Positions 24,001 through 30,000 of a DNA stretch of 64,000 nt are shown here, one piece after another. Each line of letters opens with the position of its first letter. The first letter of the stretch is position 1. A program made the position numbers. The DNA lies in the IMG/VR virus record IMGVR_UViG_2687453508_000006; one strand, given 5' to 3'. This DNA is from a virus. Taxonomy: Duplodnaviria; Heunggongvirae; Uroviricota; Caudoviricetes.

Positions 24001-27000
24001 ATGCTGTAACGACCGGCTTCATCCGGATTTTCAGAGGCCACCGTGTTCACCACCACCGTGGCGCTGTTACGTCTGGCTTTCAGTTGAATGGTGCAGTTCT
24101 CTACCGGTTTTCCTGTGCCGTCTTTCAGTACACCTGAAATCTTTACTGCCATATTCACCCCACAAAAAAGCCCGCCTGAACCGGCGGGCTGTCATAACAC
24201 TGTGTTACCTGGCTAATCAGAACTTATAACCGACACCCACGATGAAACCGTCAGTGCGCCAGTCGCCACTGCCGGAGCCTTCATAAGCAATATCAATGGC
24301 CACGGATTCGGTCGGGTTAAACTGCACGCCAGCCCCCCACGCCAGAGACGTGTTGCTGTGGCGACCGTCATCACTTCCGGTCAGCACATCGTGCGTTTTC
24401 CCCTTGTTGTCAGTTACGCGAAGATAATCCCCGGAGAAAGTCGACACACGGCTGTAAGCCACACCCGCCATCGCATACGCGCTGAACCATTCATTCACGC
24501 GCACAGACGGCCCCGCCATTACGCTGAACCAGCGGTTACGCACGGAATCTTCATGCCAGCGGGTATCGCTGTAACGGGTAAGCTGGCGATTCTTGTCTCC
24601 TGCATAGCTGAATGACGTCACCAGCCCCAGCGTGTCCGTAAATTCATAACGGTATTTCACGTTAATCCCGTTAAGATTATCGCTACCGGGAGCGCTCGTC
24701 CGGGCATGAAGATACCCCGCGCTCAGCGTGGCCTGCTGCTCAGACGCCCATGCAGGCGCGCCGGATACGGCCAGACAGATGGCTGCGGACAAAATGGCGG
24801 CATAAAGTTTACGCATAATTACCTCTCGCTTTTCTGCAATAAAAAAGGCGCCATTTCTGGCGCCCGTATATGGGTTATAAAATTCAGCTGATACTGATGC
24901 CTGCGGTGGCTTTCTTCATCACCACAACCAGCAAATCGCTGATACTTGCTGTGGGATACCAGTTATTCACCAGCCATGCTGACACCGAAAACTCCAGCGT
25001 CATGTGACCGTGACCGGCAGGCATATCAATAACGCCACTGTAAATCAGCGTATTATCCAGCGCGGTACGGTTATAAATTTCAGCACCGTTTTTCCGCACT
25101 ATCAGACGGCATGAGGAGTAAATATCAGTATGCTCTCTCTCTCATGTTTAGCGCCGCTGAATGCCACCGCCGGAATAACAATCTGCCGGTCAAACGGCTG
25201 ATCGTCATAAACCCTGACGGTAATGGTCCCTGATGGCCACCGTTCCGGTGCACGGGAGTCCCGGGGGAAAGCTTTGCCCACTGTTTTAACGAGATCGCCT
25301 TCAATCTGGTTCGCGGACAGTTTTCCCAGAACCCGACAGTTCTCGTTAATCGTGACGTTGTTGAGCGTCCCGGAGTTCGCATTCACACTGCCACTGATAT
25401 CCGCATTTTTAGCGGTCAGCTTTCCGTCTGATGTCAGGGAAAATGCCGGAGGATTGCCGCCACTGGTAATGGTGGGAGCCGTCAGATATTTCAGGAACAC
25501 TTCATTCATAAATATCTGATCGCCCTGACCAACAAACATCGGCTTTGTGTTGCCATTCGCAGGATTAATCATCGCAATCCTGTCTGCCGCCAGCAGCACC
25601 TGACTCTGCATTCCTGCTGGCGTATTCTCAATACCGGCACCGATACCCGCAATATAAAGGCGTCCGTCCTGCATCTGCTGCAGTTTCACGGCCCACATGC
25701 TGTTCAGGTTATTATTTGTATCAACCTGAACTTTCTGTATCTGCTGGATTGCCGCACTCTGATTTTCCAGTTTTTTATTGACGGTCTGCGTGATTTCATT
25801 GCTGACATTCGTAATGGACGTCCTGATTTCAGCCAGGTCCGGCGCAAGCTGACCGTTATCAATCTGCGTCCACAGCTCCTGGGCCAGATGTGTTTTCCCG
25901 ATTTCTCCTTTGAAAAAATCCAGGTAACCTTCCGCATCATCGCTCGCCCGACCGACAGCCTCCACGAATGCCGATTTGCCAACAGTATTCACACTGCGGA
26001 TATAAAAATAATAATCATGGCCCGGTTTGATATTGATACTGGCAGCTATCCAGTACAGCGCCGAGCCAAGATAGCGGGCTGCGGTTTCAACCTGCCTGAT
26101 ATCCGCAATCCGCTTTTCCGAGAACCAGAACTCAAACTGTACCGTCGGGTCATAAACGGCAAGATGCGGCGTGGCGGTTATCTGAAAATAGCCCGGCGTC
26201 AGCTCAATCCGCGACGGTGCTGCCGGTGCGGCAATCCGGAAGGTGGTGGTGGCAGGTTCACCCTGCTGGCCATAGCTGTTTATCGCCCGCACCGTCAGGG
26301 TGTATTCCCCGAGCGGCAGGCCGCTGAAACGGTGCTCCGTGTCTGCGGTGATGGCGGTGGTCACCAGTCTGGCATCCGTTCCCTTACCACTGGTCAGGCG
26401 CAGACTGAAGCGCACGCCCTTCACCACCCGCGGCGTGTCCCATTTAGCCTGCGCCAGATACTGGCCGTCAGCTGCACTCACCTCCACCGTCAGGTGCTGT
26501 ACTGCCGGTGGGATGACGCTGTTCAGGGAACCTGACTGCGGCTCAAAGCGGGCACCGTTATCCACGATGGCTTCTTTTTCCGGTACGTGCTGCACCGCCG
26601 TGATGGCAAAGGTGCCGTCCGTGTTTTCCCGGACGGAGACACAGCGGAACAGGCGACGGCACAGTGACGGCAGGGAGAGTCCCCACACCCCGTATGTCTC
26701 CACACCATCAGGCAGGGTACTGACCTGTATCCGGTCCGGCGCGGGGTGTGCGGTGATGTCCACACTCACCGGCTTACCGCTGCCGTTAATCAGGTTCACC
26801 GTGGCGGCACCGGTCTCCGGCAGTGTCACCTCACGGTCCAGCGTCAGGGTGCGGCTGGCGGCATCGATGGACAGGACACGTCCGCCGGTCATGGTCCCGG
26901 CATAGTCGTTATCACAGATTTCAATAATGTCACCGGGTGTGTGACGCAGCCCCTGTGACCCAAGCGTGAAATCCACCGTCTGCGTTTCCAGCAGTCCGGT

Positions 27001-30000
27001 CTTTATCACCCACAGCCCGGCACGGTGGGCCTGACCGCGACTGGTGCAGCCGAACGCATCCATCTTCAGCAGGTTGCGTCCGTAGCGCAGTATGGCTTCC
27101 GGGTCTTCCACCAGTTCCGTGGAGGTCTGCCAGCCGTTCTGCGGGTCGGTGTAATTCACCTCCACCGCCGTGTGGCGGTCCTTCAGGGCGCTGAAGCTGT
27201 AGCGAAACCCCACGCCGTTATCATCCACCACCACATCACTGCTGGTGTAGGCCACACCACATCTGACGGACGGTCCTGCACAAACGTCAGCGTCTGCCCG
27301 TTCCATACCGGCATACAGCGCATCGCCGAGCAGAAATCACTGAGAACGTCCCACGCCTTACGCTGTTGTGACAGGTACGCATTGAAAGTCATCCGCGGCT
27401 CTGTGCCCCCGAAACCATCCGGGACCGTCTGGTCGCAGTACTGCGCAATGGCATACAGCGCCCACTTGTCCACATCCGCCGCCCCCAGGCGTTTTCCCAT
27501 TCCGTAGCGCGGGTGGGTCAGCATGTCCCACAGGCACCAGGCAGGGTTGTTGCTGTATGCCGGTTTCAGGCTGCCGTCCCAGATGCCGCTGTACGTGCGT
27601 TTTTCCGGGTCATAGTTTGACGGTACCTGGATGATGCGACCGCGGATATGGTAGTTCACCGTCATCTGCTGACCGCCAAACTGCTCCGCATCCACCTGCA
27701 GCCCCACAATCGCCGTGTTCGGGTAGCACTGTTTCACATCGATGATTTCGGTGTATGACGACCAGAGCGTCTTATTCTGCAGCTGGTCCGAGGTGCTGTC
27801 CGCTGTCTCCCGGACCATCCGGATGTTAAAGGGCCGCTCAGGCAGATTATCCAGAATCACCGACGCCAGAAACTGCGAGGTGGTCTTGCCGTTAATGGTG
27901 ACATCCTTTTCCGTCACCCAGTTACCGTTACGCTGCAACTGAATCAGCAGTCGGACAGAAGAGTGATTACGGTCGCCCTTTGAGGTGGTCTCCAACAGTG
28001 ACTGCACCCCGAAGGTGACCCGCAGGCGGTCAATGTTCGCGGACGTAATGGTGCGCGTCACCGGTTTTGCCTTCGTCACTTCCACGCCCAGTCCGGTTTC
28101 AGCTCCGGAGGACTCAAAGCCTTCCGGTGGTGTCTGCTCCTGCTCCCCGGCACGCCAGACCGCGGTCACACCGTGTATCACGGGATTGCCGTCCGTGTCC
28201 GTCAGTGGGGTTTTGTTCACCAGAATACTCTGCAGTCCCTTCACCGGACCTTCTATCGGTCCCTCACCAATCGCATCAATCACACTCATCATCTGCGTGG
28301 ATTTGAGATTATCCTTCGCCTCACGAGGCGTGTGTGCCTTACCGCCACCTTTTCCCATACAGCCTTCCCCTGAATAAATTAACCGCCACTTGCCATTCCG
28401 TACAGAAGTCGGATATCCTTCGCCCGAAAAGCATGAAACACATTTCTGCCATGCTAAAGAAAACCCCGGTATCAGCAGATACCGGGGTTTTCTTTCATGC
28501 CCACCGATAATCCTGTTGGTTAAAACCGGTAATGGCATAAAAATTCTGAATATCTTCACATTTTCACACACTGACTGTGGCGCTTATAATTTCGCTGCGT
28601 TAGTGTTTTTTTGCCCGAGTAACAAAAACAACTCCTTAACATTGATCTTCATTTGTCTGTCCCCGCAGCTCCGCGATCACTGCGGGATTTTTTTATGTTT
28701 TATCCCTGTCGCCCGACAACCACGACCGTTCCGCCCCCGCCTTCATCACGGGTGCTGATGTCCTGGGATATACGGCGGGAGCCAACCAGCATTTCCCCGT
28801 AAGGCACCGGCATCGGGTTCCCCTGGGCAATCATGTTATCCAGCGAGGAAAAGTACGTGTTCTGTCTGCCGTTATCCGTTGCGCGGTAATCCGGTGTTTT
28901 TGCCTTCGGGGCCAGCATCTGGGCCACACCGCCCAGAATCATGCTGGCTCCAAGTGAAAACAGCATCGTGGTGGCAGAAAAACCACCGGCTGCCAGGGCT
29001 GAACCCCATAACGCCATTGATGCCCCGGCAGTGAAGAAAGAGCCCACGATGGCTGCCGCCCCCAGCACAATCTGCAGTCCACCCTTTCCGGCCCCGGCCA
29101 GTCGCGGCACAATATGGATGACCGTTCCCTCACCCAGCTGTTCGTGAAGACGGGCGTACACCGCCTCCGGTGCCGTGTCATAACCGGCAATACGTATCTG
29201 GTACCAGCCTTCGTTCATCTGACGGCGAAAGCCCGGCACCTGTAACGACAGCGCCCGGATGGCTTCCGCTGCCGTGTTCACATACAGGCTGAGGCGGCGG
29301 CCAAATCGTTGTAAATCCCCGTGAAGGCAGATACGTGCCAGTGGCGGTGACGCCAGGCTGAATGCGTTCGTCGTTGCCATTTTTCGGAATACCTCTCCCG
29401 TTTACTCAGTTGTTCAGGCAGATGGTGAAGCAGTTCACCGTTGCCGCAGTATATGGCGGCATGATTGGCCACCGATGCGCCAAAGCAGCACAGCAGGATA
29501 TCGCCAGGCTGTGCGGAAGGCAGGGAAATCCTGTAAAAACCAGTCGCCTCCATATTGTCCAGGTACAGGTTCTGACCATTGCGCCACCAGTCATCCTCAC
29601 GCTCAAAATCCGGCATATCAGTCCCCGCCAGATGATAAGCATCCCGGAACAGCGTGTAACAGTCCGTCACCCCGTGCTCAAAGCGCCGTCCTGTCAGATG
29701 TGGCACACAGCGGAATTTGTGAATGTCACCCCGGCAGACCAGCCACCAGGGCAGTGCGCTTTTTATCTGCAGCCGCCGGTCAGCCTCGCTCAGCCAGGGC
29801 AGCCCACCGGGATGACTGTGGACCAGTGCCACAATCTCCCCCTGCATCTCTGCCCGCAGCCAGTCTTCCGGTGCGATACGAAAATACGCCTCCGGCTCTG
29901 CAGAAATATTCACACAAGGGATATACCACTCCCCCTCCGGCGTGCTTATCACGAAGCCGCACGACTCCGCAGGCGCACACCGCCGGGCATGCGCCAGAAT

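Follow-up and report, generated by a model that had tools for sequence, protein, structure and literature searches.

The window analysed here, a stretch of 64,000 nt deposited as IMG/VR virus record IMGVR_UViG_2687453508_000006, carries on its minus strand the gene for a lambdoid tail protein, J, which is followed by lom and preceded by tail assembly gene I (Table 1); the Sakai annotation of the identical sequence, when compared with lambda, places J between I and lom in the tail operon, and the gene order K-I-J-lom-tail fibre is the one known from lambda. According to the ORF list of the window, the start codon of J is the ATG at 28358, from where the gene runs through three successive ORFs of the minus strand, each in another frame (27183..28571, 25102..27306, and 24884..25099). 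Phage PPompW_EH1992 has an intact J of 3474 nt, and alignment with it reveals exactly two indels in the 3475-nt span of the window, at 27250/27251 and at 25133-25143, which confirms the two frame changes that a sequence-only reading of this DNA had located at these sites. The same reading had stated that the gene matches lambda J along its length, and this holds: when J is repaired by adding one base and removing one GA unit, a single ORF of 1157 aa without further stop codon results, the product of which is 68% identical to lambda J from end to end (residues 1-1156 versus 1-1131).

The top structural-sequence match of the repaired protein is lambda gpJ, the tip attachment or central tail fibre protein (structures 8iyk and 8xcj). 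Both share the same six Pfam gpJ families (FNIII-A_GpJ, Phage-tail_3, Ig_J, Ig_J_second, Phage_Tail_Tip, and Ig_GpJ_C), the scores of which on the repaired translation far exceed the Pfam cut-offs. The lambda protein differs in being shorter (1132 aa), and the most diverged part is the C-terminal, receptor-binding one, where identity is 50 of 100 and 20 of 59 positions in the two final windows of the alignment. Unlike its lambda counterpart, J of the window is interrupted by two frameshifts and has no full-length protein. While a functional gpJ is encoded in one uninterrupted reading frame, stops are encountered here at 27183-27185 and 25102-25104; because J is interrupted by stops in three frames, it is a pseudogene of the lambda-type gpJ family, and full-length J cannot be made from 24884-28358. 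The second of the three fragments ends with 10 out-of-frame residues past J residue 1075, and the GTG with which the third one starts is fortuitous. Codon differences from the intact orthologue are 57 synonymous versus 19 non-synonymous; as they are mostly synonymous, J must have been functional until recently.

Table 1. Position of J, its fragments, its two lesions, and its neighbours in the window
Feature	Position	Strand	Remarks
gpJ (tip attachment/host specificity protein J) pseudogene, Sp12-type lambdoid prophage	24884..28358	-	3475 nt versus 3474 nt in intact orthologues
Fragment 1 (Sakai ECs_2235)	27183..28358	-	J residues 1-370, then 21 out-of-frame residues, stop at 27183-27185
Fragment 2 (Sakai ECs_2234, annotated from 27231)	25102..27306	-	J residues 371-1075, second frame
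Fragment 3 (Sakai ECs_2233)	24884..25099	-	J residues 1087-1157, third frame
Lesion 1, single base lost	27250..27251	-	codon 370, within Phage-tail_3 domain (330-498)
Lesion 2, (GA)5G tract, one GA unit more than in-frame (GA)4G	25133..25143	-	codon 1075
Tail assembly gene I	28700..29281	-	upstream neighbour of J, context
lom	24217..24816	-	downstream neighbour of J, context

Prophage Sp12

The gene is the same object as J of prophage Sp12 of E. coli O157:H7 Sakai. The J region (4001 nt) is 100% identical to Sp12, with no difference within J, and recurs unchanged in at least 30 further complete genomes of independent origin, which include Xuzhou21, PA20, TW14588, and the PNUSAE series and stem from many laboratories and years. 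In the Sakai annotation J appears as three ORFs (ECs_2233, ECs_2234, and ECs_2235), and the NCBI pipeline PGAP calls the same gene a pseudogene (“gpJ, frameshifted”); a literature search on ECs2233, ECs2234, and ECs2235 found nothing. Outside J, the window is identical to Sakai through position 35434 and departs from it from 35435 onward; a junction at about 47655 of the window is absent from all complete genomes.

Sp12 has been listed as defective in host specificity, integrase, repressor, recombination, portal, and head (Asadulghani et al. 2009, Table 1; PMC2669165), and the transfer table of the same study gives no circularisation/excision, replication, or packaging for this prophage. Pseudogenisation, which was one of the possibilities raised by the sequence-only reading, is supported both by the public annotation of J as split or frameshifted and by the published defect of Sp12 in host specificity; the broken J of Sp12 is an already known, stably inherited pseudogene in a dead prophage.

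The Frameshift at Codon 370

At the first lesion, GGCCGTACACC of the PPompW_EH1992 orthologue is aligned with GGCC-TACACC in the window; in the sense of J, the codons TGG CCC TAC (most orthologues have CCG in the middle) now read TGG CCT ACA. Loss of a G from GGCCGTAC was considered as a description of this lesion and dropped. In TR01 and CDC#03-98 the site is in frame and reads GGCCCTAC, with flanks that are otherwise identical; since this is the closest in-frame allele, the lesion is better described as loss of one C from the CCC run. The deletion allele is found as an exact match in 244 records of complete E. coli genomes, and the same deletion is reported independently in the record of phage VT1-Sakai (“truncated protein by a mutation”).

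The idea that this is the older lesion and makes the GA tract irrelevant everywhere had to be revised: as TR01 and CDC#03-98 combine (GA)5 with an in-frame first site, the argument from the upstream deletion is limited to the Sakai-type allele present in the window.

The GA Tract at Codon 1075

The second lesion consists of two extra bases (CATGAGAAAGAGC in the PPompW_EH1992 orthologue versus CATGAGAGAGAGAGC in the window), that is, one GA unit gained exactly where the sequence-only reading had placed the frameshift, and it cuts the receptor-binding domain Ig_GpJ_C (residues 1027-1157) after residue 1075. No other dinucleotide repeat in the window reaches the 11 nt of the (GA)5G tract; for GAGAGAGAGA the chance expectation is 0.08 per window, and at least one copy occurred in 6 of 100 shuffles. 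The frame of J is set by the number of GA units, (GA)5 being out of frame and (GA)4 in frame. An exact search with the same context in 5,426 complete E. coli genomes retrieved (GA)4 from at least 1,555 records, (GA)5 from 216, and (GA)3 from three, or four if a record with one mismatch is included; (GA)6 was found in none of the 5,426 genomes. Among 55 matching records of deposited phages, none carries (GA)5. Since in-frame copies with the same context commonly carry (GA)4, slippage is a reasonable origin of the additional unit; slipped-strand mispairing, as had been proposed for this tract, is thus plausible as the source of the mutation, while its role as a reversible functional switch is not supported (see below).

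The (GA)3 tract of NCCP 13946 (GCF_056900235.1) lies in a J that is otherwise 100% identical and is likewise out of frame; it looks like a true variant of the window's own allele. The SCU-484 record, which stands within a row of “frameshifted” genes, is probably a sequencing error in an error-rich assembly, and in UID2309220031 a 1-nt deletion compensates for the (GA)3 tract and J is annotated as intact. There is also a second J background with (GA)5, namely the tccP2-adjacent prophage of PV15-279, where TR01 has (GA)4; this (GA)5 may have arisen by independent slippage or by short-patch gene conversion, no SNP from J nt 3116 to the end of the gene distinguishing the two. The (GA)3 of NCCP 13946 and the (GA)5 in the PV15-279 background argue that the tract is somewhat mutable. 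In strains of the TR01 type, (GA)5 is the sole lesion in J, and a single contraction of the tract could in principle restore the ORF.

Mosaic History of the Two Lesions

A block of 2038 nt (J nt 859-2896) is identical to J of Sp15 (VT1-Sakai, the Stx1 phage) and includes the 1-nt deletion at codon 370; the Sp15 gene differs in its other 5′ and 3′ ends and in having, in place of (GA)5, an interrupted GAGAAAGAG, which is in frame. Over J nt 2850-3475, in turn, the window agrees completely with the Sp12-like J genes of TR01 and CDC#03-98, (GA)5 included. The comparison with J genes of related prophages, suggested along with the sequence-only reading, showed the orthologues to be encoded in a single frame and each lesion to occur singly in other J copies of O157; the two lesions reside in separate recombination modules. 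An in-frame version of the 3′ module of this allele gave no exact match, and the best 40 of the 56 nearest records all have (GA)5.

With high confidence we consider J of Sp12 to have been inactivated by two ordinary, fixed frameshifts which were inherited clonally and spread by recombination. At codon 370 a short run of C has lost one base, and at codon 1075, in the receptor-binding domain, one GA unit has been gained, converting (GA)4 into (GA)5, most likely once and by replication slippage. Both lesions are passed on clonally, and homologous recombination has moved them among paralogous J genes within the pool of O157 prophages; the double-lesion allele of the Sakai type is a mosaic of a module with only the first lesion and a module with only the second. 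J is a decaying remnant, the lesions in it being presumably neutral, and the prophage around it has further defects in integrase, repressor, portal, and head functions. What is gained is modest, namely a cleaner history, in which defects are handed round the O157 prophage pool by homologous exchange and in which the (GA)5 lesion is able to exist without the upstream deletion; the significance is small, the split J having been public since the Sakai genome and the death of Sp12 being documented experimentally.

Alternative Explanations

It is improbable that a useful role accounts for the retention of the fragments, be it as a reservoir for recombination of J modules or as truncated proteins (the N-terminal one of 391 aa, the middle one of 734 aa) which might, for example, disturb tail assembly. 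J modules are clearly exchanged, as illustrated by the 2038-nt block in common with Sp15 and by the 3′ block in common with other Sp12-like J genes, and recombination between prophages yields new transducing phages (Asadulghani et al.; PMC2669165); further, the ORF is undamaged but for the two indels. However, exchange of modules does not require selection for the broken state, and recent conversion explains the identity among the copies equally well.

Very unlikely is the reversible on/off switch contemplated in the sequence-only reading, that is, a contingency locus in which slipped-strand mispairing toggles the receptor-binding C-terminus of J at high frequency. Like the repeat contingency loci of Haemophilus and Neisseria, J contains a repeat within its coding region the unit number of which sets the frame; the frameshift lies exactly within the longest dinucleotide repeat of the window, the E. 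coli population has alleles of 3, 4, and 5 units, one of them, (GA)3, in an otherwise identical gene, and (GA)5 is carried by two different J backgrounds. Five units are, however, very short for a contingency tract, and alleles of six units are missing from the census. Close relatives are not polymorphic for ON and OFF lengths, given that no in-frame revertant is seen among the best 40 of the 56 nearest records and that the one length variant of this allele, (GA)3, is OFF as well. Nor is the uninterrupted tract conserved across orthologues; PPompW, Sp15, the Z1826 J, and many intact orthologues have the interrupted GAGAAAGAG instead. In the window a functional ON product is precluded by the second, independent lesion upstream, as the frameshift at codon 370 keeps J off regardless of the tract. 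Moreover, Sp12 does not excise, replicate, or become packaged, and hence forms no virion on which a host-range switch could act. The inversion of the G segment in phage Mu and the diversity-generating retroelement of the Bordetella phage do act on that end of a tail protein which binds the receptor, as had been proposed for J; these host-range switches employ an invertase or a reverse transcriptase together with dedicated cis elements, and no comparable machinery is annotated beside J. A genuine switch at this tract would amount to a novel form of host-range control in lambdoid phages; the data, however, speak against one.

A related notion, to which we likewise assign very little probability, starts from the alleles of 3 to 5 units, the two backgrounds with (GA)5, and the strain with (GA)3 in an otherwise identical gene, and sees in the GA tract, at the end of lambdoid J genes that codes for the receptor-binding domain, a recurrent hot spot of slippage; it would inactivate J modules reversibly and at a low rate, and recombination would then reshuffle these among the O157 prophages. 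This is conceivable for TR01-like strains, in which J has no lesion other than (GA)5.

Recoding, by which full-length J would be made through programmed ribosomal frameshifting or transcriptional slippage at both sites, is hardly credible. Lambdoid tail operons do use one programmed -1 frameshift (G/GT), and AGA-rich stretches are able to promote +1 shifts at a low level. Two unlike shifts would be required, though, -1 at the first site and +1 or -2 at the second, and a slippery heptamer of the type X XXY YYZ is absent from both (GTG TGG CCT ACA CCA and CAT GAG AGA GAG AGC ATA); as the orthologues are encoded in a single frame, neither shift is a conserved feature of the J family.

That J is intact in reality and broken by sequencing or assembly error, as the sequence-only reading had also allowed, is refuted. 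A short insertion or deletion in a repeat or homopolymer is a typical error of this kind, and the SCU-484 record is probably an example, but the 4001-nt identity extends over at least 30 independently assembled genomes, the (GA)5 context and the deletion recur exactly in 216 and 244 records, respectively, and the deletion was noted independently for VT1-Sakai.

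Structure of the J locus

The gpJ (tail-tip, host-specificity) region of the window, 24884-28358, consists of three consecutive minus-strand ORFs, each in a different frame. Over a 4001-nt query spanning J, the window matches E. coli O157:H7 Sakai at 100% identity, within the element that Sakai annotates as "prophage Sp12, lambda-like phage"; at least 30 further complete genomes also match at 100%, among them Xuzhou21, PA20, TW14588 and a large number of PNUSAE isolates. Sakai names the pieces ECs_2235, ECs_2234 and ECs_2233, all "phage host specificity protein"; the NCBI PGAP annotation of RefSeq genomes gives the same 3475 nt as one gpJ pseudogene flagged "frameshifted". 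J is preceded in the Sakai annotation by the tail assembly genes K and I and followed by lom and a tail fibre gene, the same arrangement as in lambda. No gene is annotated in the 341 nt that separate I from the start codon of J (28359-28699); in lambda this gap is ~60 nt. The 341-nt stretch is conserved in intact PPompW phages.

Alignment with the intact J of phage PPompW_EH1992 (3474 nt, 1157 aa, 97% identical) contains exactly two indels, and both fall where the sequence-only reading had placed two frameshifts, which are thereby confirmed. At lesion 1 one base is absent at 27250/27251 (J-sense GTGTGGCC-TACACC versus GTGTGGCCGTACACC in PPompW_EH1992); it affects codon 370 in the Phage-tail_3 core, so that the first J piece stops at 27183-27185 after 21 foreign residues. 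At lesion 2 the tract 25133-25143 has two extra bases (CATGAGAGAGAGAGC versus CATGAGAAAGAGC in PPompW_EH1992; CATGAGAGAGAGC is the form most common among in-frame E. coli J genes); it follows residue 1075, midway through the C-terminal receptor-binding domain, and the second piece stops at 25102-25104, 10 residues further on. This (GA)5G tract, with a chance expectation of 0.08 per window, is the longest dinucleotide repeat in the window. With one base added and one GA removed, J becomes one 1157-codon ORF free of further stops, 68% identical to lambda J end to end and containing all six gpJ Pfam domains; among solved structures, lambda J chains are its best matches.

Features of the window J gene, its repaired product and its modules
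Feature	Position	Strand	Remark
J ORF 1	27183..28571	-	ORF list; J start ATG at 28358
J ORF 2	25102..27306	-	ORF list
J ORF 3	24884..25099	-	ORF list
FNIII-A_GpJ	86-207 (residues)		Pfam, repaired J
Phage-tail_3	330-498 (residues)		Pfam, repaired J
Ig_J	609-712 (residues)		Pfam, repaired J
Ig_J_second	714-816 (residues)		Pfam, repaired J
Phage_Tail_Tip	870-998 (residues)		Pfam, repaired J
Ig_GpJ_C	1027-1157 (residues)		Pfam, repaired J
Module identical to J of Stx1 prophage Sp15 (VT1-Sakai)	859-2896 (J nt)		Sp15: lesion 1 only; tract in-frame GAGAAAGAG
Module of Sp12-like J, TR01 and CDC#03-98 (one base differs)	396-1396 (J nt)		(GA)5 only; site 1 in-frame GGCCCTAC
Module identical to Sp12-like J, TR01 and CDC#03-98	2850-3475 (J nt)		(GA)5 only; site 1 in-frame GGCCCTAC

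Pseudogene, switch or error

Pseudogenisation, one of three explanations initially offered, is upheld: J is a defective gene of Sp12, already annotated as such by PGAP and already published. Asadulghani et al. 2009 (PMC2669165) list Sp12 in their Table 1 as defective for host specificity, integrase and repressor, and also for portal, head and general recombination functions; in their experiments it showed neither circularisation, replication nor packaging.

The sequence-only reading had also proposed that the GA tract reversibly turns the receptor-binding C-terminus on and off. That Sp12 is a dead prophage counts against this, as does the codon 370 frameshift, owing to which the window J stays dead at any tract length. 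Among complete E. coli genomes the identical 104-nt context is found with (GA)4 in at least 1,555 exact records, annotated as intact gpJ, and with (GA)3 in three exact records plus one with a mismatch; (GA)6 is found in none of the 5,426 genomes. No in-frame revertant was found: when the 3′ module of J was taken from the window, restored to (GA)4 and used as a 774-nt query, it had no exact match, and of the 56 records reaching ≥99% identity to it the best 40 all carry (GA)5. (GA)5 is also absent from all 55 matching deposited-phage records. Nor is the repeat conserved, many intact orthologues having the interrupted GAGAAAGAG at the tract, which likewise argues against a switch. A functional reversible switch is therefore unsupported, and slipped-strand mispairing is a plausible origin of the GA insertion.

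Sequencing error, the third explanation, is excluded: exact queries of ~100 nt against 5,426 complete E. coli genomes recovered the (GA)5 context in 216 records and the lesion 1 deletion in 244, and a separate VT1-Sakai phage entry independently records the same deletion ("truncated protein by a mutation"). Programmed recoding is likewise excluded as not credible, because both sites lack a slippery heptamer and J orthologues are encoded in a single frame.

History of the lesions

J genes in O157 prophages have a mosaic structure, and the two lesions lie in different modules. From comparison with J of Sp15, TR01 and CDC#03-98, lesion 1 is best described as a CCC run that has lost one C (TGG CCC TAC to TGG CCT ACA); each lesion occurs singly elsewhere, and the Sakai-type allele with both is thus either a recombinant or the product of sequential events. 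The J of strain Z1826, which joins the Sp12 5′ end and lesion 1 to an Sp15-type 3′ end, is another recombinant, and such mosaics agree with the published picture for O157, in which near-identical lambdoid prophages recombine. In 2017C-4109 (segment L004, NZ_CP030767.1, 3442-7519) two abutting partial J pseudogenes total 4078 nt; relative to the window there is a 599-nt insertion, and site 1 is present twice, one copy deleted and one intact, so that this J looks chimeric or duplicated by unequal recombination between prophages. Compared with an intact orthologue, the window J has 57 synonymous and 19 non-synonymous codon differences; with synonymous changes in such excess, it was under purifying selection until recently.

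Directly upstream of J, the Sp12-like prophages of the O157 strains CDC#03-98 (segment L007, 2817-3442) and TR01 (segment L014, 1-429) have lost K and I together with the 3′ portion of L ("minor tail protein L, incomplete"), so that decay is independently evident in the very strains whose sole J lesion is (GA)5. The Sp12 end adjoining Sp11 (window 15338-22499; Sakai annotation, identical sequence) holds IS629/IS1203, a partial ISEic2 and ISEc8 as well as three nleG-family effector pseudogenes, nleG7, nleG3 and nleI/nleG2-4, which adds to the case for prophage decay.

Tract variants in other strains

The Sp12-type J of NCCP 13946 (segment L012, NZ_CM167685.1, 433-3903) equals the window J at every position except for (GA)3 in place of (GA)5; with this 4-nt difference it keeps lesion 1 and is still out of frame, and reflects either a genuine contraction or an assembly error. 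From nt 2487 on, J of the tccP2-adjacent prophage of PV15-279 is the same as TR01's except for (GA)5 versus (GA)4, and the SNPs at nt 3101 and nt 3116 that are specific to its allele are retained; this is due either to slippage a second time or to conversion of a short patch. In UID2309220031 (segment L013, NZ_CM142673.1, 427-3903) a 1-nt deletion lying 124 nt upstream compensates for the (GA)3, with the result that the receptor-binding domain is read in a different frame over ~41 codons; this J, annotated as intact, is possibly a natural compensated-frameshift variant of that domain. Poor assembly quality probably explains the (GA)3 of SCU-484, which sits among several consecutive "frameshifted" genes. 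These variants fit occasional slippage during replication at a short repeat, not a contingency locus.

Second copy of the morphogenesis module: rearrangement or misassembly

The window equals Sakai (NC_002695.2) base for base over 1-35434 and differs from it by 98 mismatches and 11 gaps over 35435-47655; at ≥99%, 35000-59000 has no match in any complete genome. The window therefore does not derive from the current Sakai reference, the identity across J notwithstanding. The last 16 kb (47648-64000) repeat the L-to-head morphogenesis module of 30326-46850 at 98.6-99.1% identity. This copy adjoins the Sp12 lysis region immediately upstream of the endolysin gene. The junction, near 47655, is found in none of 5,426 complete E. 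coli genomes (801-nt query across it, ≥80% coverage) and stems either from a misassembled source or from a rare rearrangement between prophages.
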